From: Lachnospiraceae bacterium | Lineage (GTDB): Bacteria > Bacillota > Clostridia > Lachnospirales > Lachnospiraceae | Direction: 5' to 3' | Assembly (NCBI GenBank): GCA_022510615.1 | Contig: JAFLTC010000002.1 | Location: 67,850 to 131,849, forward strand | DNA length: 64,000 bases | Shown: one piece after another, positions 17,071 to 25,447 of the stretch | How the letters are laid out: each line of letters opens with the position of its first letter | How positions within the stretch are numbered: position 1 is the first letter of the stretch | Notes under the pieces: generated by a model | Database searches by the model: none | What the model saw: the letters and a program-made list of their open reading frames with translations, nothing else | Told to the model about the DNA's origin: nothing | Made by a program: the position numbers and the translations under genes

Positions 17071-17892
17071 TTACAATTTGGCTAGCTGTGCTAAAGCTTT
17101 ATCCTTGACAATAATTTGAAAGTGTTCATTATAATAATCCTGAGTGGCATAGGTTACCGTTTCTTCTTTTCCAAATTCTGAAATAACAGAACATGCCAGT
17201 TGGAAAGAGGTTTTGGCATTGCCACGGTTTAAGAGGAGATAATAGCGGTTCGTTACCGTATCTTTCCATACCGTATTTTTTCCGGAATAATTTTCATTTA
17301 CCAGATGGGCAACCTCAATAATTGGATTCAGGGACAGGAAAGAATATACCTTTACACGCTCCTGAATTGCCTCTGTACTTTTTTTCTTATTTGTCTTTTT
17401 CCCTTTTTTTCCTTTTTGTAATGCCTCGCTTAACGGGATAAATTCGGATGAATCACGAGAGGAATTTTTACTTTCTGCTTCTTCAATCAAATCATGCAAC
17501 TGCTCAAAGCAATTTACAATTTCTGAGGCATCAATAGAGGAAGCATCCTCCTCGTCCTCTTCCATGTCCAGCTCATCCTCATCTTCATCCTCAAAATCCT
17601 CATCCTGAATACCAAAACGGGAAAATTTTTCATCAAATTCTTCCGGATTATCCACCTTGGTAATTACGAGGACAATGGAGTCCCGGGAAGTCGGGATTGC
17701 TTCTATCATCAAAGGAATGTCATCTGCATCAAATCCAAAATCGATGTTGGCTTGTTCCATCATATCACGAAAAAGTTCCTTCGCTTTCTCGGAACCATAG
17801 GCCAGCTCACTTATTTTAAGATGGCGTTCCATCAAATCGTGTTTGCTCAAAGTACAGCGGATTTGATTTTCACTAATTCGTTCAATCTTCAC
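17071..17892 (-). CDS. mecA: ClpC adaptor protein MecA
   Basis: N-terminal KIERISENQIRCTL, LMIEAIP, acidic linker and C-terminal ISEFG...EH motifs. Confidence 0.9.
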   Translation of the reverse strand: MKIERISENQIRCTLSKHDLMERHLKISELAYGSEKAKELFRDMMEQANIDFGFDADDIPLMIEAIPTSRDSIVLVITKVDNPEEFDEKFSRFGIQDEDFEDEDEDELDMEEDEEDASSIDASEIVNCFEQLHDLIEEAESKNSSRDSSEFIPLSEALQKGKKGKKTNKKKSTEAIQERVKVYSFLSLNPIIEVAHLVNENYSGKNTVWKDTVTNRYYLLLNRGNAKTSFQLACSVISEFGKEETVTYATQDYYNEHFQIIVKDKALAQLAKL

Positions 17893-18334
17893 AAGCACAC
17901 TTCCTTTCTAGTCGAACTGACTTATATTTGTATCAAAAGTATAAGTTATATTTGCCCTAAAGTCAACATATTAGAGGAAAAAAGTATCTGGAAATATTTA
18001 TATTATATGTTTAAACGGTATGAATTTTCGTATATACGACACTTGATTTTGCAAAACACCGTTAAGTATAATATAGTTAAGGGTAAAGCTGCACTAAAAT
18101 TGGGAGGTGGTTATCGGGGCTGATTTTACATATATTAAGTAATGAAAAGGAACATGTCAATATTTTTCGCAAATCTTTTTTTCTATTTTATTCATAGCAG
18201 TTAGTTACATTATAGTTATATTTCAATAAAAAATTCACAAAAAAATAAGGCAGTCTTTACCTGCAAGCTACAAAAGAATGGTTTACATCACGGAATACAC
18301 CTTCTTTTACTTTGTAGTTACAATAGGAGGACAT

Positions 18335-18580
18335 ATGCAAAACAATCAATGGATACTGGAGGAAGCGGCGTATGCAAAAGAACATGGAATCGCCATTGAT
18401 GTCGAAGGTATTTCCTACGAGGATAAAAGTCAGACAGAGCTTCTGAAGGTATTGGAACATGGGTCCTATATGTTAGATTATGAGGGGGATGCACTCGGTC
18501 GGATTATTGCTCTGCATGTTGACAGGGTGGGACCGTCTGAAAAACCGTCTTATAAATCGTTACGATGTACAAAAAAATAG
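18335..18580 (+). CDS. Small hypothetical protein
   Basis: AGGAGG RBS before ATG 18335, followed by a terminator-like hairpin. Confidence 0.65.
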   Translation: MQNNQWILEEAAYAKEHGIAIDVEGISYEDKSQTELLKVLEHGSYMLDYEGDALGRIIALHVDRVGPSEKPSYKSLRCTKK

Positions 18581-18678
18581 GCCGGAAAAGGGGCACGGGA
18601 ATTACGCGGTTTCCGTGCCTTATCCTATGTAGTGTGTCGTATTTGACAAAAAGAAGTGTATAAATTTCAAAAAAAGTA

Positions 18679-18707
18679 TTGACAAAAAAATGAGTGTGGG
18701 ATATAAT
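18679..18707 (+). promoter_or_regulatory. Consensus SigA promoter of the sulfur amino-acid operon
   Basis: TTGACA-17 nt-TATAAT with an A-rich UP region. Confidence 0.9.
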
Positions 18708-18714
18708 CCTAGTA

Positions 18715-18735
18715 TTCCTAGCAAACATGTAGGAA
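18715..18735. promoter_or_regulatory. Palindromic operator, probably for an Rrf2-family (CymR/IscR-like) repressor
   Basis: TTCCTA-N9-TAGGAA immediately downstream of the predicted +1. Confidence 0.6.
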
Positions 18736-18774
18736 AACTAAGAAATAAAAAATCCAAAGAAAGGAGAGCGCGTT

Positions 18775-18885
18775 ATGAAAAAAGTAACAACACGAAAAAT
18801 GATGCAGAGCAGGATGTGTTGCTGTAGCTTCATGCAGATGTGCGTGGCTATGGATTATTTTCATGCGTGTTGTTCTCCGGTGTGA
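18775..18885 (+). CDS. Met/Cys-rich leader peptide (36 aa), putative attenuator
   Basis: AAGGAG RBS. MKKVTTRKMMQSRMCCCSFMQMCVAMDYFHACCSPV contains 7 Met and 6 Cys. A terminator follows 25 nt after the stop. Confidence 0.8.
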   Translation: MKKVTTRKMMQSRMCCCSFMQMCVAMDYFHACCSPV

Positions 18886-18910
18886 TTGTGATATAGAATG
18901 CAAACATACG

Positions 18911-18945
18911 GCGCGGATACATCACGGCATGTGTCTGCGTTTTTT
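18911..18945 (+). terminator. Leader (attenuator) terminator
   Basis: GCGCGGATACAT-cacggc-ATGTGTCTGCGT (12 bp with G.U pairs) followed by a U-tract, upstream of the mccB RBS. Confidence 0.8.
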
Positions 18946-19002
18946 ATTGTCAACCTTCTTCGGAGTGAAACAGGAGAAAGAAAAGCAGAAAGGAATTTTA
19001 TT

Positions 19003-20166
19003 ATGAGTGAATTTAAAAATCATGCAATAAATACAAAATTGATTCATGGAGGGATTTCCACAGATGAGGCAACAGGGGCAGTAAATGTCCCGATTTACCA
19101 GACCTCGACCTTTAAGCAGGAAATTCCGGGCGTACATAAAGGATATGAATATTCTCGAACCGGGAATCCGACAAGAGAGGCGCTGGAAGCATTGATTGCA
19201 GAGTTAGAGGAGGGAATAGCCGGATTTGCCTTTGCCTCCGGGCTGGCAGCCATTACCGCAGTACTCAGCCTGTTTCAGACCGGGGATAAGCTGGTTATAT
19301 CCGATAACGTGTACGGCGGAACCTTCCGGGTACTGGATAAGGTCTTCAATAATTTTGGCATTGGCTATGTGTTAGTAGATACGACAGATATTAACAAGGT
19401 AGAAGAAGCCATAGATGAAACCGTGAAGGCGGTATATATTGAAACTCCGACCAATCCGCTCCTTGGCATTACGGATATCCGTGCCGTGTCGGAAATTGCA
19501 AAGAAAAAAGGGCTTCTAACGATTGTGGATAATACCTTCTATACACCGTATCTGCAGAGACCGATTCCGGAAGGGGCGGATATTGTCATTCACAGTGCTA
19601 CAAAGTATCTGGGAGGACACAGTGATGTAGTGGCAGGGCTGGTTGTGGTAAATGATAAAGAGCTGGCAGAAAAAATTGCCTTTTTGCAAAATTCCACCGG
19701 CGGAGTGCTTTCTCCATTTGATTCCTTTTTACTGATTCGGGGTATCCGGACGTTGGGTGTACGGCTGGACCGGCATGTGGAAAACGCAGAAAAGCTGGCA
19801 CAGTTTTTGCAGGGTCATCCGGAAGTAAAAAAGGTATACTATCCGGGATTGAAAGAGCATCCGGGATATAAAATTAATAAAAAGCAGGCAAAGAACGGCG
19901 GTGCTATGATTGCCTTTGAATTAACGGAAAACCATGATGTTAATAGATTTTTCAAAAACCTTCATATTATCAGTCTGGCAGAGAGTCTGGGAGGAATTGA
20001 ATCCCTTGTCTGCCATCCGGCTTCCATGACCCATGCGGCAATTCCGGAAGAAATCCGGAATGCGGTGGGAATTACAAAAGGACTCATCCGGCTCTCTACC
20101 GGAATAGAGGAGAGAGAGGAATTAAGGCAGGATTTGGAGCAGGCGATTACCGCTTCCCGGATTTGA
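19003..20166 (+). CDS. mccB: Cystathionine gamma-lyase / PLP-dependent transsulfuration enzyme
   Basis: PIYQTSTF, YSRTGNPT, ETPTNP, DNTF, HSATKYLGGHSD and SLGGIESL motifs. Adjacent to an MccA-like gene. Confidence 0.85.
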   Translation: MSEFKNHAINTKLIHGGISTDEATGAVNVPIYQTSTFKQEIPGVHKGYEYSRTGNPTREALEALIAELEEGIAGFAFASGLAAITAVLSLFQTGDKLVISDNVYGGTFRVLDKVFNNFGIGYVLVDTTDINKVEEAIDETVKAVYIETPTNPLLGITDIRAVSEIAKKKGLLTIVDNTFYTPYLQRPIPEGADIVIHSATKYLGGHSDVVAGLVVVNDKELAEKIAFLQNSTGGVLSPFDSFLLIRGIRTLGVRLDRHVENAEKLAQFLQGHPEVKKVYYPGLKEHPGYKINKKQAKNGGAMIAFELTENHDVNRFFKNLHIISLAESLGGIESLVCHPASMTHAAIPEEIRNAVGITKGLIRLSTGIEEREELRQDLEQAITASRI

Positions 20167-20179
20167 AAGGGGGAGGCCT

Positions 20180-21097
20180 ATGAAATACTATGAATCTACA
20201 CAGGATATGATTGGCGATACCCCCATGGTTAAGCTCTCTTACATGGGAGCGGGCCTTAGGCCAGAGATATTTGCAAAATTGGAACTCTACAATCCGTCGG
20301 GCAGTGTAAAAGACCGTATCGGAAAATACATGATAGAGGATGCTGAGAAAAAAGGGTTGCTAAAGCAGGGTTCCACAATCGTGGAAGCTACGGCGGGAAA
20401 CACCGGACTGGGAATAGCCTTTGCCGCATTAAACAAAGGTTACCGGATTATCTTTGTCGTGCCGGATAAATTTTCCATAGAAAAGCAGCAGTTAATGAAA
20501 GCACTGGGAGCAGAGCTGGTGCATACGGCGAGAAAAGACGGTATGCAGGGAGCCGTGAAGAAGGCGGAAGAACTGAGGGAGGAAATCCCCGGAGCCATTT
20601 CTCTGGAGCAGTTTAAAAACCAGAGCAATCCCCTGGCTCATTATGAGACAACGGGACCGGAAATCTATGAAGCCATGGAAGGCAACATTGATTATGTGGT
20701 GTTAGGTGCCGGAAGCGGAGGAACCTTTACCGGAATAGTAAAGTATCTGAAGGAAAGAAATCCGAAGATACAGGGAATTTTGGCAGATCCCATTGGCTCC
20801 ACCATAGGAGGCGGAGAACATGGTGATTACAATATAGAAGGAATCGGGAATGATTTCATTGCGGACACAATGGACATAAGTCTTGTGGATGAGGTCATTA
20901 AGGTGTCCGACAGAGAAGCCTTTGAGGCTTCCCGCCAGCTGGCAAAAAAAGAGGGGATATTTGCAGGAAGCTCCTCCGGTGCGGCACTGGCCGCCGCCAT
21001 AAAGCTGGCAGAAACAAAGGCGGGCGGAAATATTGTTGTGGTATTACCGGACAGGGGTGACAGATATTTCAGTGCCCACTTATATGATGAGGAATGA
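20180..21097 (+). CDS. mccA: O-acetylserine-dependent cystathionine beta-synthase / cysteine synthase family enzyme
   Basis: NPSGSVKDR, EATAGNTG, GSGGT and IEGIG motifs. The ATAGNTG/KFS-EK signature and pairing with mccB favour MccA over CysK. Confidence 0.75.
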   Translation: MKYYESTQDMIGDTPMVKLSYMGAGLRPEIFAKLELYNPSGSVKDRIGKYMIEDAEKKGLLKQGSTIVEATAGNTGLGIAFAALNKGYRIIFVVPDKFSIEKQQLMKALGAELVHTARKDGMQGAVKKAEELREEIPGAISLEQFKNQSNPLAHYETTGPEIYEAMEGNIDYVVLGAGSGGTFTGIVKYLKERNPKIQGILADPIGSTIGGGEHGDYNIEGIGNDFIADTMDISLVDEVIKVSDREAFEASRQLAKKEGIFAGSSSGAALAAAIKLAETKAGGNIVVVLPDRGDRYFSAHLYDEE

Positions 21098-21111
21098 AAG
21101 GTGGTATAACC

Positions 21112-22146
21112 ATGAGCGAAGAAACAGAAATATTCCGGCTGGAGCATGTATCCAAAGTATTCCGGGACAAAAATGCGGAAGTTACGGCGGTGGATGATGT
21201 CAGCCTCAGTATCCATAAGGGCGAGGTGTTTGGCATTATTGGTATGAGCGGTGCCGGTAAAAGTACGCTGGTTCGGACGCTGAATCGACTGGAAAATGTG
21301 ACAGAGGGAAGGATTTCCTTTGACGGTGAGGTTTTAGGAGAACTGTCGGAGAAAAGACTTCGAAAGGTCAGACAGTCCATGGCGATGATATTCCAGAGCT
21401 TTAATCTGCTGATGCAGAAAAATGTGCTGGCAAATGTAATGCTGCCGATGAAAATAGCTAAGGTAGAAAGAAAAGAGCGGAGAGAACGAGCGCTTGAAAT
21501 GCTCCGGGTAGTAGGATTAGAGGATAAGGCGAAAGCATATCCGGCACAGCTGTCCGGTGGGCAGAAACAGAGAGTTGCCATTGCCAGAGCACTATCCATG
21601 AATCCGAAGGTTCTTCTCTGCGATGAGGCCACCAGTGCCTTAGACCCGAAAATTACCGAGGAAATTCTGACTTTGCTGGGAGAAATTAACAAGACGATGA
21701 AGCTGACCATTGTCATTATCACCCACGAAATGTCCGTGGTAGAAAAAATCTGTGACAGGGTAGCGATTATTGATAAAGGGAAATTAGCCGAGGTAGGACC
21801 GGTGGAGGAAATCTTTACCAGTCCAAAGACAGAAGCAGCAAAACATCTTGTATTCCCGGCGAAGCAGGAAATGGATAATCCCTTCCATATGACAGATAAA
21901 AGATGTGTCCGGATTGTATTTGACGGACTTGCCGCCAATGAGCCGATTATTGCCAACCTGGTGCAGGATACCGGGGAAAAGGTAAATATCCTCTGTGCCA
22001 ATACAAAAAGTGTTGGCGGTGTGGGATTTGGGCAGATGATAGTAGAGCTGCCTAAAAACCCGGATGCGGCAGAAAGAGTATTAGAGTATTTCAAACAGGC
22101 AGGTGTAGTTACCACTGAGGTTGAGAGAGAGGAGGAAAATGTATGA
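21112..22146 (+). CDS. metN: Methionine ABC transporter ATP-binding protein
   Basis: GMSGAGKS, LSGGQKQR, CDEATSALDP motifs and a C-terminal NIL domain. Confidence 0.92.
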   Translation: MSEETEIFRLEHVSKVFRDKNAEVTAVDDVSLSIHKGEVFGIIGMSGAGKSTLVRTLNRLENVTEGRISFDGEVLGELSEKRLRKVRQSMAMIFQSFNLLMQKNVLANVMLPMKIAKVERKERRERALEMLRVVGLEDKAKAYPAQLSGGQKQRVAIARALSMNPKVLLCDEATSALDPKITEEILTLLGEINKTMKLTIVIITHEMSVVEKICDRVAIIDKGKLAEVGPVEEIFTSPKTEAAKHLVFPAKQEMDNPFHMTDKRCVRIVFDGLAANEPIIANLVQDTGEKVNILCANTKSVGGVGFGQMIVELPKNPDAAERVLEYFKQAGVVTTEVEREEENV

Positions 22147-22796
22147 CACAACAGCTTTGGGAAATGATTGGTCAGGGAGTAGTCGAAACTCTCCAGATGA
22201 CGGTTATTTCTACGATATTAGCCTATGTCGTAGGGCTGCCACTGGGTATCGTTCTGGTCATAACGGATAAAGGACATATTTTACCAAACCGGATTGTAAA
22301 TGGAATTATCGGAGCCATTGTAAACATATTCCGTTCCATTCCCTTTCTTATCCTGTTAGTATTTCTGATTCCTTTTACCAGATTTGTAACCGGAGCGTCC
22401 ATTGGAACGACGGCAACGATTGTGCCGCTGACAGTGGGAGCCATACCGATTATCGCCCGTATGGTGGAATCGTCCTTAAAGGAGGTGCCGTCGGGAATTA
22501 TCGAGGCAGCACAGGCGATGGGGGCCTCCCCCATAGAGATTATAACACGCTTTTTATTACCGGAGGCAGTGCCTTCCCTGCTCTTAGGGGCAGCCATTAA
22601 CCTGGCAACCATCCTTGGCTATTCAGCCATGGCAGGATGTATCGGCGGTGGCGGACTTGGCGCAATCGCATTAAACTATGGATATTATCGGTATCAGACA
22701 GATGTTTTGTGGATAACTGTAGCGATACTGATAATCATTGTGCAGATTTTCCAGGAAGTGGGAACACGACTTTCTGTTAATCGACGACATTCATAA
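22143..22796 (+). CDS. metI: Methionine ABC transporter permease
   Basis: RSIPFLIL, EAAQAMGAS and SAMAG-IGGGGLG motifs. Confidence 0.92.
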   Translation: MTQQLWEMIGQGVVETLQMTVISTILAYVVGLPLGIVLVITDKGHILPNRIVNGIIGAIVNIFRSIPFLILLVFLIPFTRFVTGASIGTTATIVPLTVGAIPIIARMVESSLKEVPSGIIEAAQAMGASPIEIITRFLLPEAVPSLLLGAAINLATILGYSAMAGCIGGGGLGAIALNYGYYRYQTDVLWITVAILIIIVQIFQEVGTRLSVNRRHS

Positions 22797-22828
22797 ATTA
22801 ATATTAAAAAGTTCAGGAGGAAAGAAAC

Positions 22829-23671
22829 ATGAAGAAATTATTATCACTTGCATTAGTTGCAGCACTCACATTAGGTACCTTGACAGGATGTGGAGAGACA
22901 GAGACTTCCACATCCGAGGGAAATACGGGAACTACAGAAAGTAGTCAGACAATTACCGTAGGGGCTTCTCTGACACCTCACGCAGAGATTTTAAGACAGG
23001 CAAAACCGATTTTAGCTAACGATGGAATCACATTGGAAATTGTAGAAATTGAAGATGTCGTAACACCGAATACCGGATTGGCAGAGGGAAGCTTAGATGC
23101 AAACTTTTTTCAGCATCAGCCGTATCTGGATGATTTCAACAGCGAAAACGGAACAGACTTAGTATCTGTCGGTAATGTACATTATGAGCCATTTGGTATT
23201 TATGCCGGAAAGACAACAAGTCTGGATGCGCTTCCGGACGGGGCAACAGTAGCTGTACCGAATAACGTAACCAACGAGGCGAGAGCACTTCTTTTATTAC
23301 AGCAGGAAGGACTTCTTACCTTAAAGGATGGCGTGGATATTAAAGCAACCGTAAATGACATTGTGGAAAATAAGAAAAATATACAGTTTAAAGAAATTGC
23401 ACCGGAGCAGCTCGTTCGTTCCCTGCCAGATGTAGATGTGGCAGTTATCAATGGAAACTATGCCATTGAGGGCGGCCTTCATGTAAAGGATGCGCTGGCA
23501 GTAGAGTCTGACCAGTCCGTAGCGGCAAAGACCTATGCCAATATTGTAGCGGTGCAGAAAAAGGATGAAAACAACGAAGCGATCAAGAAGCTGATTGAGG
23601 TGCTTCAGGGCGATGAAATCAAAAAGTACATCAATGACACCTATGATGGTGCAGTAGTACCGATTAACTAA
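22829..23671 (+). CDS. metQ: Methionine ABC transporter substrate-binding lipoprotein
   Basis: Lipobox LTGC. PHAEIL, DANFFQHQPYL and NEARALLLL motifs. Confidence 0.92.
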   Translation: MKKLLSLALVAALTLGTLTGCGETETSTSEGNTGTTESSQTITVGASLTPHAEILRQAKPILANDGITLEIVEIEDVVTPNTGLAEGSLDANFFQHQPYLDDFNSENGTDLVSVGNVHYEPFGIYAGKTTSLDALPDGATVAVPNNVTNEARALLLLQQEGLLTLKDGVDIKATVNDIVENKKNIQFKEIAPEQLVRSLPDVDVAVINGNYAIEGGLHVKDALAVESDQSVAAKTYANIVAVQKKDENNEAIKKLIEVLQGDEIKKYINDTYDGAVVPIN

Positions 23672-23704
23672 AACAAAATTTGAAAATTGAAAGGAGATAA
23701 AAAA

Positions 23705-24259
23705 ATGGCTAGAGTAAAATTAGTAGAGGCAAATGAGGTAACAGGGAAAGAAAAGGAAGCGTATGATGAGCTGGCAGGAAGAAATGCTGTGACAAATATG
23801 AAAAGAGCATTATTGCAGGATTATGCTACCTATGATGCGTTCATGGGATGGTATACATCATGGGCTCGTCTGGTAGAGGTTGTGGGCGAAAAAGCAGCAA
23901 CCATCTATGCTCATTCGGTATCCACCACAAACGGATGCCTGTTATGCTCACTGTTCTTTATCAGTGACTTAAAGGATCTGGGACTGGATCCGAATAATCT
24001 GGAGTTTGATGAGAAAGAAAAGCTGCTGGCACAGTTAGGTCAGCAGATTGTAAAGGATCCGACAGCAGTATCTGATGAACTGATTGACGAGTTGAAAGAA
24101 TTCTTTGATGACCGTGAGCTGGTAGTTATCGTAGGATTTGGAGCACAGATGATTGCGACTAACAATTTCAATTCTGTATTAAAGATTGATGTAGATAACA
24201 GACTTCTTTCGATTCAGGGAGAATTTAAACCGGCAACCTGGAGAGAAAATATTCAGTAA
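23705..24259 (+). CDS. AhpD / carboxymuconolactone decarboxylase-like protein
   Basis: VS-x2-NGCLLCS (CxxC) and C-terminal helical AhpD-like pattern. Confidence 0.7.
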   Translation: MARVKLVEANEVTGKEKEAYDELAGRNAVTNMKRALLQDYATYDAFMGWYTSWARLVEVVGEKAATIYAHSVSTTNGCLLCSLFFISDLKDLGLDPNNLEFDEKEKLLAQLGQQIVKDPTAVSDELIDELKEFFDDRELVVIVGFGAQMIATNNFNSVLKIDVDNRLLSIQGEFKPATWRENIQ

Positions 24260-24271
24260 AACAGAGAAAGG

Positions 24272-25447
24272 ATGGGTACAATGGTTAATTTTCAATATCA
24301 TAACCCTGCGAAGATTGTATTTGGACAGGGTTCGGAAAAGGAATTACACAGACTCTTAGAGGAGGAAAAAGCCGCCTCTGTCCTGATGGTCTACAGTGGA
24401 GATTTTATAAAAGAGCTTGGCATTTATGCTGCAGTGGAAAAGATCTGCAAGGATTTGGATATTGCCTTTTATGAAAACGGAACCGTTGTACCAAATCCTT
24501 CTGTGGAACTGGTGCGGGAGTTGGTGACACTTGGCAAGGAGAAAAAAGTAGATTTTGTTCTTGCCGTAGGAGGAGGCAGTGCCATTGACACGGCAAAGGC
24601 GATTGCCCTGGGAATTCCTTATGAAGGAGATGTATGGGATTTCTTTGACAAGGGTGTTTTGCCGGAGGAGGTTTTACCGACTGGCGTGATTACCACCCTG
24701 CCGGCCAGTGGCTCGGAAACTTCGAACTGTGCCATTATCTCCAATGGAGAGTGGAAGTTAGGTTTTGAGGATGACCGGATTATTCCGAAATTCGCCATTA
24801 TGAATCCGGAGTATACACTGGGACTTCCGGCATATCAGACCTCCTGTGGCGTGGCGGATATTTTATCTCATCTGTTGGAGCGGTATTTTTCCGACGTAAC
24901 CCACACGGATGTTACCGATTATCTGCTGGAGGGAGCGATTAATGCCCTTCTTGTCAATGGGGACAGGCTGATAAAAAATCCTGAAAATCTGGAGGCAAGA
25001 GCAGAAATCCAGTGGCTTGCTTCCATCGCTCACAATAATCTTTTAGATACGGGAAGAGTAGCGGACTGGGGTTCCCACCGCATTGAACATGAATTAAGTG
25101 CCCAATACGGCATTACCCACGGTGAGGGTATGGCGGTGGTACTGGTGGCATGGACCAAATATATGGCGAAGGTAAAACCGTGGAAATTAGCCCAGCTTGC
25201 CAACCGTGTATTTCATGTGGATGACCGGAACTATACCGAGGAAGAGATGGCAGAAATTTTATCGGAGAAGTTAAAGGCATTCTTTATATCGCTGAATTTA
25301 AAAACCTCATTGGCGGAGTTGTCCATCGGTTCTGAGCATTTTGAGGAAATGGCAGACCGGGCAACGAAAAACGGAACCCAGACGGTAGGACATTATGTGC
25401 CGTTAGACAAAGGGAAATTTCAGGAAGTGTTAGCGCTGGCTCTTTGA
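24272..25447 (+). CDS. Iron-containing alcohol dehydrogenase (BdhA/YqhD-like)
   Basis: GGGSAIDTAK, ASGSE, SHRIEHELS and HGEG motifs. Confidence 0.9.
   Translation: MGTMVNFQYHNPAKIVFGQGSEKELHRLLEEEKAASVLMVYSGDFIKELGIYAAVEKICKDLDIAFYENGTVVPNPSVELVRELVTLGKEKKVDFVLAVGGGSAIDTAKAIALGIPYEGDVWDFFDKGVLPEEVLPTGVITTLPASGSETSNCAIISNGEWKLGFEDDRIIPKFAIMNPEYTLGLPAYQTSCGVADILSHLLERYFSDVTHTDVTDYLLEGAINALLVNGDRLIKNPENLEARAEIQWLASIAHNNLLDTGRVADWGSHRIEHELSAQYGITHGEGMAVVLVAWTKYMAKVKPWKLAQLANRVFHVDDRNYTEEEMAEILSEKLKAFFISLNLKTSLAELSIGSEHFEEMADRATKNGTQTVGHYVPLDKGKFQEVLALAL

Follow-up and report, generated by a model that had tools for sequence, protein, structure and literature searches.

How is an operon that would import methionine (Met) and convert it to cysteine (Cys) controlled in a member of the Lachnospiraceae, when its leader shows none of the RNA sensors familiar from such genes? 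The question is raised by the region upstream of mccB in a stretch of 64,000 nucleotides (nt), here called the window, from a Lachnospiraceae bacterium (GCA_022510615.1, contig JAFLTC010000002.1, positions 67,850 to 131,849 of the forward strand; coordinates below count from the first letter of the window). A first-pass annotation made from the sequence alone had proposed that a short upstream open reading frame (uORF) rich in Met and Cys codons is the sensing part of a ribosome-mediated attenuator in front of a mccB-mccA-metNIQ operon. Following up this proposal, we find that the element is real and conserved, and we consider it probable that it is a leader-peptide transcription attenuator of mccB-mccA-metNIQ with charged tRNA-Cys as its main input.

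The features by which an attenuator is recognized are present in the leader: a short open reading frame (ORF) with its own ribosome-binding site, clustered Cys codons and a terminator before the first gene (Table 1). The order of promoter, ribosome-binding site, Met/Cys-rich 36-codon ORF, hairpin with U-tract and mccB ribosome-binding site is as the annotation had described it, and the peptide translates exactly as claimed, apart from a start that had been placed one base off. The promoter is the only promoter-like site on the + strand within 18200-19300 and lies about 60 nt 5' of the uORF start codon, so the 5' untranslated region (UTR) measures roughly 60 nt. The terminator stem, which spans 18910/11-18940 and runs into TTTTTT at 18940-18945, begins 25 nt after the uORF stop; from the end of the T-run to the mccB start codon at 19003 there are 57 nt, with the mccB ribosome-binding site 40-50 nt past the terminator. 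Measured against the long ORFs of the same genome (2.7% Met and 1.4% Cys), the peptide is enriched in both residues (p=3e-4 for Met, p=8e-6 for Cys). When mini-ORFs with a Cys run, a Shine-Dalgarno-like site and a T-run behind them were listed over the whole genome with a crude filter, no other had a similar content of Cys and Met, and most of those listed had the look of chance frames.

To learn how far the leader is conserved, relatives were gathered with the MccB protein as bait, so that the search was blind to the leader itself. Within the same genus (ortholog threshold E<=1e-130), 18 of 72 genomes have an ortholog, and in 14 of these 18 a leader, that is a Met/Cys-rich uORF with a terminator, stands directly upstream. 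A family sample of 401 genomes, one per genus, gave orthologs in 24 genomes at 25 loci, nine of them with a leader. The best 80 matches in a species-representative collection added five leader records, labelled as rumen Clostridiales, Ruminococcaceae, Lachnospiraceae, Clostridia and Eubacterium metagenome-assembled genomes (MAGs), one of which is identical to a same-genus leader. In total, 24 distinct leaders were obtained, and they fall into two groups: the subfamily of the window copy with six members (peptide MCCCSFMQMC..M.YFHACC) and a sister group of 18 with the core M-C-C-R-M, a common R-A-x-x-M-A-G-A-F stretch and the tail R-C(-C)-stop. In agreement with the check that the annotation had proposed, orthologous operons are preceded by Met/Cys-rich uORFs in which composition is kept and sequence is free. 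Most loci scored as leaderless have another gene on the same strand that ends just 5' of mccB. At 14 such loci a poly-Cys uORF with four to six consecutive Cys codons lies about 1 kb farther upstream; the device is therefore broader than the analysed set.

These poly-Cys uORFs (loci L119, L121, L126/L104, L036, L038, L050, L058, L074, L087, L092 and others) are found ~1.0-1.2 kb 5' of mccB, each with a T-run behind it, and precede the same-strand gene ahead of mccB. They appear to be a second leader type serving a longer operon, and the type also occurs in records named as Treponema and Cyanobacteria MAGs.

The reading frame is conserved throughout the family. In all 24 leaders the frame that contains the Cys run is open (median 41 codons) from an ATG with a purine-rich Shine-Dalgarno site 6-10 nt on its 5' side, whereas the +1 and +2 frames have on average 3.0 and 2.2 stops and are open in none of the 24. 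The Cys codons exchange synonymously among the leaders (94 TGT, 27 TGC), and ATG is specific to the frame, with 99 triplets in it and 15 and 25 in the other two. Counted in frame and family-wide, Cys reaches 13.2% against a background of 1.4% (~10-fold) and Met 10.8% against 2.7% (~4-fold). Since the frame is open in 24 of 24 leaders, Cys codons change synonymously and ATG is frame-specific, the data point to selection on the translated frame and not on an RNA motif alone; we infer that the uORF is translated, that ribosomes stall on it and that folding follows the order set out below.

These observations also bear on the idea of an RNA-only element, that is an undescribed riboswitch or protein-binding leader that would use the UGU/AUG-rich segment while the frame stays untranslated. 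Such an element would account for the blocks AUGUGUUGYUGU, CGAAUG, CGAUGU and UUUUCAUGCGUGUUGUU, which are more constant than coding demands, and for a helix (P1, see below) that hides the Shine-Dalgarno site in the full-length fold. We nevertheless hold it to be highly improbable in view of the 24 of 24 open frames with a properly spaced Shine-Dalgarno site and ATG, as compared with two to three stops in the other frames, the synonymous changes in the Cys codons, and the constancy of peptide length and of where the stop lies with respect to the terminator, despite a variable sequence in between; nor do Rfam models match. In most sister-group leaders (e.g., L004, L005, L006, L076 and L096) the tail CGA-UGU(-UGY)-stop is conserved as a nucleotide sequence, and the Arg codon CGA also stands behind the first Cys run.

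Translation of the frame could also serve to make a product. In that case the uORF would encode a functional small Cys-rich peptide, for example one binding metal or sulfur, and its position would mean co-expression instead of sensing. The peptide is indeed well conserved within the subfamily of the window copy, and the sister group has its own common stretch (both given above). However, the family core comes down to M-C-C-(C/R)-M: beyond the Met/Cys cluster and a Cys at the end, the peptide sequence drifts across the family, as would be expected of a sensing leader and not of a functional protein. Moreover, the conserved stretches coincide with RNA helices (the 3' strand of P1 and CCGGGC/GGCCGG), a terminator between peptide gene and operon together with a competing pairing is unexpected for simple co-expression, and maturation or export genes are absent nearby. 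A functional peptide thus seems to us a very poor candidate. A precursor of a peptide made by the ribosome and modified after translation (RiPP) or of a bacteriocin was rejected, because the neighbours are metabolic genes and genes for maturation or export are absent.

We then asked what the RNA itself preserves. A terminator-like hairpin with a T-run follows the stop in all 24 leaders, starting 17-37 nt past it in 23; in the remaining one (L136) the best hairpin lies 62 nt past the stop and is very weak (-0.3 kcal/mol). In 16 of the 24, the upstream segment that pairs best with the terminator 5' arm begins 3-19 nt past the last Cys codon of the run and therefore at the 3' edge of a ribosome stalled there. 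Covariation of this pairing was assessed in a MAFFT alignment of the 18 sister leaders (columns 38-47 with 139-148). The helix is 83.9% paired, eight of its ten pairs are altered on both sides (CCGGGC/GCCCGG, CCGAAC/GUUCGG and CCCAAGC/GCUUGGG are compensatory examples), none of 500 shuffles reached the covariation score, and slid controls were at most 51% paired. The terminator stem is displaced by a few bases downstream in several sister leaders, so the terminator is not the source of this covariation. Judged by these compensatory changes, an antiterminator pairing is present in the sister group at the classical distance from the Cys codons.

Two further structures recur in the family. The Cys codons and the subsequent CGAAUG stand at the base of a local hairpin, the putative anti-antiterminator, and a ribosome placed on the last Cys codon strips on average 6.2 kcal/mol of local structure. 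In addition, the helix P1, in which the region of the Shine-Dalgarno site and start codon pairs with the distal uORF, is found in 22 of 24 leaders with energies of -15 to -28 kcal/mol; it ends 3-18 nt 5' of the uORF stop, and its sequences vary between leaders. We read P1 as a closed default state that would restrict translation to a ribosome loading during transcription.

For the window copy, the corresponding parts can be assigned with different firmness. A hairpin of regions 1 and 2 (1:2 hairpin; 18822-18836 with 18841-18853, -14.4 kcal/mol) is predicted over the Cys run, starting in the third Cys codon. It is supported by the six-sequence subfamily, where 88% of it pairs and three pairs have changed in both strands. 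A ribosome on the last Cys codon would remove 12 pairs (8.4 kcal/mol), and the hairpin would be lost with a ribosome on codons 15-17. The equivalent of P1 in the same six sequences has 80% of cells paired. Two candidates emerge for the antiterminator, neither of them robust, and the assignment to either region 2 or the distal strand of P1 is tentative. In candidate A, 18837-18853 pairs with 18904-18919 at -13.9 kcal/mol (5% of shuffles are as good), and its counterpart in the closest relative, L111, has -12.0 kcal/mol (3% of shuffles). In candidate B, the distal strand of P1 (~18862-18874) pairs with 18905-18916 at -11.2 kcal/mol; when the 5' leader is treated as occupied by ribosomes, this strand is the main partner of the terminator 5' arm (fraction 0.66).

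Table 1 Features of the mccB leader and the downstream operon in the window
Feature	Position	Strand	Remarks
Sigma-70-type promoter, TTGACA-17 nt-TATAAT	18679-18707	+	12/12 consensus matches
Palindromic operator, TTCCTA-N9-TAGGAA	18715-18735	.	covers the expected transcription start; candidate CymR-like Rrf2 site
Helix P1, 5' strand, with the Shine-Dalgarno site and ATG of the uORF	18762-18782	+	predicted to pair with 18857-18879; -20.4 kcal/mol, z -2.6
uORF Shine-Dalgarno site, GGAG	18763-18766	+	spacing to ATG 8 nt
Leader peptide gene, 36 codons + TGA	18775-18885	+	from translation; 7 Met (start counted), 6 Cys
Regulatory cluster M14-C15-C16-C17	18814-18825	+	within uORF
Region 1, 5' arm of the 1:2 hairpin, beginning in the run's last Cys codon	18822-18836	+	predicted 1:2 hairpin fold
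Region 2, 3' arm of 1:2 hairpin and candidate antiterminator 5' strand	18837-18853	+	duplex prediction
Further Cys codon	18841-18843	+	within uORF
Helix P1, 3' strand (distal uORF, including the second Cys pair)	18857-18879	+	possible alternative partner of the terminator 5' arm
Second Cys pair	18868-18873	+	within uORF
Region 3, candidate antiterminator 3' strand	18904-18919	+	overlaps 9/12 nt of the terminator 5' arm
Intrinsic terminator (regions 3:4)	18911-18945	+	12-13 bp stem, 6 nt loop, -16.2 kcal/mol
mccB-like cystathionine gamma-lyase/homocysteine desulfhydrase gene, first structural gene	19003-20166	+	NF005810, 579 bits (cut-off 594)
mccA/cysK-family gene for a pyridoxal phosphate enzyme	20180-21097	+	TIGR01136, 353 bits, over cut-off
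metN-metI-metQ, methionine ATP-binding cassette importer	21094-23671	+	profile matches and gene overlaps

Known RNA sensors do not account for the leader. The annotation had seen no T-box or SAM-I signature in it and had named an Rfam riboswitch as a finding that would speak against leader-peptide control. Indeed, no Rfam family, T-box and SAM included, matched within 17500-20000 even at E<=10. At the gathering threshold no family was found over 40 related loci, whether with or without a leader, and the T-box (RF00230) and SAM models did not match in 20 related leaders. The T-box model finds seven T-boxes elsewhere in the genome, one of them on the contig of the window outside the window itself (C42:151581-151847), and SAM-I (RF00162) has no match anywhere in the 88%-complete genome. 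A known riboswitch, T-box or leader family was ruled out, as Rfam gave no match on the leader and the 40 related loci.

In the mechanism that we favour, transcription would begin at the consensus promoter, and a ribosome would load on the uORF while RNA polymerase proceeds. With plentiful Cys-tRNA, the ribosome would pass the M-C-C-C cluster, the 1:2 hairpin would re-form behind it, the distal uORF would then pair with its own Shine-Dalgarno site and start codon as P1, and the terminator 3:4 would form, ending transcription 57 nt before mccB. With scarce Cys-tRNA, the ribosome would stall on codons 15-17 and its footprint would melt region 1; the freed strand, either region 2 or the distal strand of P1, could then pair with the terminator 5' arm, no terminator would form, and the operon that imports Met and converts it to Cys would be transcribed. 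The palindromic operator over the transcription start probably adds CymR-like repression to this.

Several points weigh against this mechanism. Candidate A is weaker in the other four members of the subfamily: in L136 its duplex has -8.5 kcal/mol with a shuffle tail of 4%, and in L138, L002 and L135 it is at the level of shuffles. The partners that partition-function calculations assign to the terminator arm vary among states and sequences. The anti-antiterminator, when projected from L006 on the 18-sequence alignment, is 68% paired with covariation not above shuffles, and we do not claim it. Equilibrium folding with ribosome footprints on the first Cys run, the last Cys codon or the stop gave a terminator probability P>0.8 in nearly all states; the method does not discriminate between them, and since the terminator persists in equilibrium folds, any switch must be kinetic. 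The second Cys cluster, near the stop, is not explained by the favoured model. Regulated read-through in this organism is inferred from the sequence. Finally, runaway transcription has been reported for Bacillus subtilis (PMC13323073, PMC7858274); if it occurs here too, it is less clear how a ribosome-coupled switch would be timed.

The annotation had described a dual Met/Cys attenuator. Its ribosome-mediated part is supported by the conservation of the uORF and by the covariation of the antiterminator in the sister group, whereas sensing of Met is only plausible. A genuine two-input sensor, in which shortage of either Met-tRNA or Cys-tRNA would stall the ribosome productively in the M-C-C-C or M-C-C-R-M cluster, is a possibility that we lean against, and it extends the Cys-attenuator reading without excluding it. 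From its place immediately 5' of the Cys run, one Met codon could act in the same way as the Cys codons: with this AUG in its A site, a ribosome would shield almost the same stretch of RNA that it covers with the first Cys codon there. Relative to the Cys run, Met occupies position -1 in 16 of the 24 leaders and position +2 in 14 of them, mixed runs such as MCMCMCCC occur, the residue is 4-fold enriched with the strong frame specificity of ATG described above (99 versus 15 and 25), and the operon includes a Met importer. On the other hand, the mean Met count is similar in leaders with metN downstream (4.4) and without it (3.7). The AUG at +2 lies within the conserved CGAAUG strand that pairs with CGUUCG and may be kept for structure; a stall there would cover the start of the antiterminator strand, and the pairing then falls in most leaders of the sister group. 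In the window copy, a ribosome starved of Met would already be held at Met codons 9-10, before it reaches the sensing site, which favours termination; higher MccAB levels during Met shortage would drain homocysteine.

Control at the promoter is a separate matter. The annotation had set a leader-peptide attenuator against the S-box, T-box or CymR control usual for such genes. The attenuator was supported, but it is not an alternative to CymR-type control, since there is a conserved operator across the expected transcription start. Of the 24 leaders, 15 have a CCTA-N9-TAGG palindrome at the promoter, after the -10 element or around the -35 element, and the sequence TTCCTA-N9-TAGGAA, which we take to resemble the published CymR box, occurs in perfect form just three times in the 2.1 Mb genome: at the window promoter, on contig C53 near 139740 (L146) and on contig C46 near 4147 (L148). 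The copy on C53 is located between a gene for a CymR-like Rrf2 protein, whose best specific model is CymR (139 bits versus a cut-off of 195), and an O-acetylhomoserine sulfhydrylase gene; the third copy, in the rpsJ-rplC spacer, is probably unrelated to sulfur metabolism. A CymR-like repressor acting on this candidate operator thus probably works together with the attenuator.

Could the promoter do everything? Under promoter-only control, a CymR-like repressor would be the sole regulator, and uORF and hairpin would form a constitutive partial terminator or a fine-tuning device without amino-acid sensing. The retention of the operator in the promoter region of most leaders, and its three perfect genomic copies with one beside the Rrf2 and O-acetylhomoserine sulfhydrylase genes, speak for such control. 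It leaves unexplained, however, why Cys is enriched 10-fold, why the frame is kept open, why the terminator follows the stop at a fixed distance and why the segment after the Cys codons shows covarying pairing with the terminator arm. Several leaders without the operator still have the uORF and the terminator, the Rrf2 protein falls under the CymR cut-off, and one of the three sites is the one in the rpsJ-rplC spacer. We therefore regard promoter-only control as very unlikely. A second conserved motif, GTGATAA-N7-9-TTATCAC followed by CGATAAA, was noticed just 5' of the -35 element in many sister leaders (L004, L142, L145, L006, L143, L144, L123 and L086), at a distance of 60-110 nt from the uORF ATG, and probably serves another regulator.

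Taken to its full extent, the leader could be a two-input, two-layer sulfur switch, combining stalling at Met and Cys codons, the P1 helix that sequesters the Shine-Dalgarno site and restricts sensing to the first co-transcriptional ribosome, and a CymR-like gate at the promoter. We consider this combination rather doubtful as a whole.

The genes behind the leader are those that the annotation had named: profile matches identify MccB-like, CysK/MccA-like, MetN, MetI and MetQ proteins. Start and stop codons of neighbouring genes overlap, which indicates a single operon. An AhpD/YciW-like gene (23687-24259) and an iron-containing alcohol dehydrogenase gene (24272-25447) follow closely behind metQ on the same strand and may share the operon; at locus L003 an AhpD-like ORF is located immediately 5' of mccB instead. 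On the other side, a 100-residue ORF without NCBIfam match (region 18278-18620) ends at 18580 and has a hairpin of its own at ~18594-18621. The leader promoter therefore begins a separate transcription unit. In the leader of L005 and L103, and in no other, a long, strongly self-complementary insert stands between terminator and mccB (203 nt); a mobile repeat and an additional RNA element are possible explanations.

Among known systems, the leader is most readily compared with the classical attenuators of Proteobacteria (trpL, hisL, leuL, thrL and pheL). In common with these it has, ahead of its first gene, a short leader ORF rich in codons for the amino acid whose supply the operon serves, followed by an intrinsic terminator; in the sister group, a segment just past the regulatory codons competes for the terminator 5' arm. 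In contrast to them, its predicted input is Cys (perhaps also Met) and its hosts are Clostridia, its uORF is long (26-45 codons) and runs ~60 nt beyond the sensing site, a predicted helix hides its own Shine-Dalgarno site and start codon, and a second Cys site stands close to the stop or at it; neither a sequence nor an Rfam model is common to both. The uORFC-8-2 motif, a predicted uORF with tandem Cys codons and a terminator before cysS in Rhodobacterales (Brewer et al. 2021, PMC8632094), is similar in being a predicted ribosome-mediated attenuator that reads tandem Cys codons and has a terminator stem with a U-run. It differs in its host (Alphaproteobacteria), in controlling the Cys-tRNA synthetase gene and not an operon for Met-to-Cys conversion and Met import, and in having two Cys codons, no Met enrichment and another RNA architecture; like the mccB leader, it is a prediction.

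Cys-rich leaders have also been described for Actinobacteria: polycysteine leaderless short ORFs of mycobacteria act on translation (Canestrari et al., bioRxiv 10.1101/834739), and Cys leader peptides include that of the cbs gene in Bifidobacterium (Seliverstov et al. 2005, PMC1262725). In these cases, as proposed here, stalling on a Cys tract reports the Cys supply to cysteine-metabolism operons, with several loci reading one input. The mycobacterial mRNAs, however, are leaderless and have no terminator hairpin, whereas the mccB leader has a 5' UTR, a Shine-Dalgarno site, a terminator and a putative antiterminator. With its promoter ~60 nt upstream, the window leader does not belong to the leaderless class.

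The closest system in terms of genes is ubiG-mccB-mccA of Clostridium acetobutylicum, which is controlled by a Cys-specific T-box together with an antisense RNA under S-box control (Andre et al. 2008, PMC2566862). Both systems share mccB and mccA and the bacterial class, and in both, leader antitermination would occur at low charging of tRNA-Cys. In C. acetobutylicum the sensor is uncharged tRNA on the T-box, while the window leader has no detectable T-box and a uORF predicted to be translated in its place. T-box and S-box RNAs are the described controls in the Clostridia lineage (PMC2566862; PMC2965389). The annotation's statement that Firmicutes normally rely on S-box, T-box or CymR control agrees with a literature describing T-box, S-box and protein control, but there is an exception: for bacilli, a His leader was reported, as the first leader peptide of the regular kind in Firmicutes (PMC2965389). 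The openly readable full-text literature, when searched, gave no account of a leader peptide for Cys or Met either at mccB or in Clostridia, which is absence of evidence only. As far as can be told, the published record has no precedent for the host lineage of the family, for its Met codons interleaved with Cys codons, for P1 or for the Cys site at the end of the uORF.

Leader-peptide attenuation, the standard case of gene control by a sensing ribosome, has been described almost only for Proteobacteria and Actinobacteria, and the family reported here would fill this gap for Clostridia. If our reading is true, a reverse transsulfuration operon that is under T-box control in C. acetobutylicum (PMC2566862) has been rewired to a ribosome sensor in Lachnospiraceae of rumen and gut. 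The leader can serve as a marker when sulfur amino-acid operons are annotated in metagenome-assembled genomes, and it offers a natural test of transcription-translation coupling in Clostridia. Should the two-input, two-layer form of the switch be true, its spread among Lachnospiraceae would show that coupling in these bacteria is tight enough for classical attenuation, in contrast to the runaway transcription reported for Bacillus subtilis. The helix hiding the ribosome-binding site and the Cys site at the stop, both outside the classical model, could explain how such switching occurs when the polymerase outruns the ribosome.

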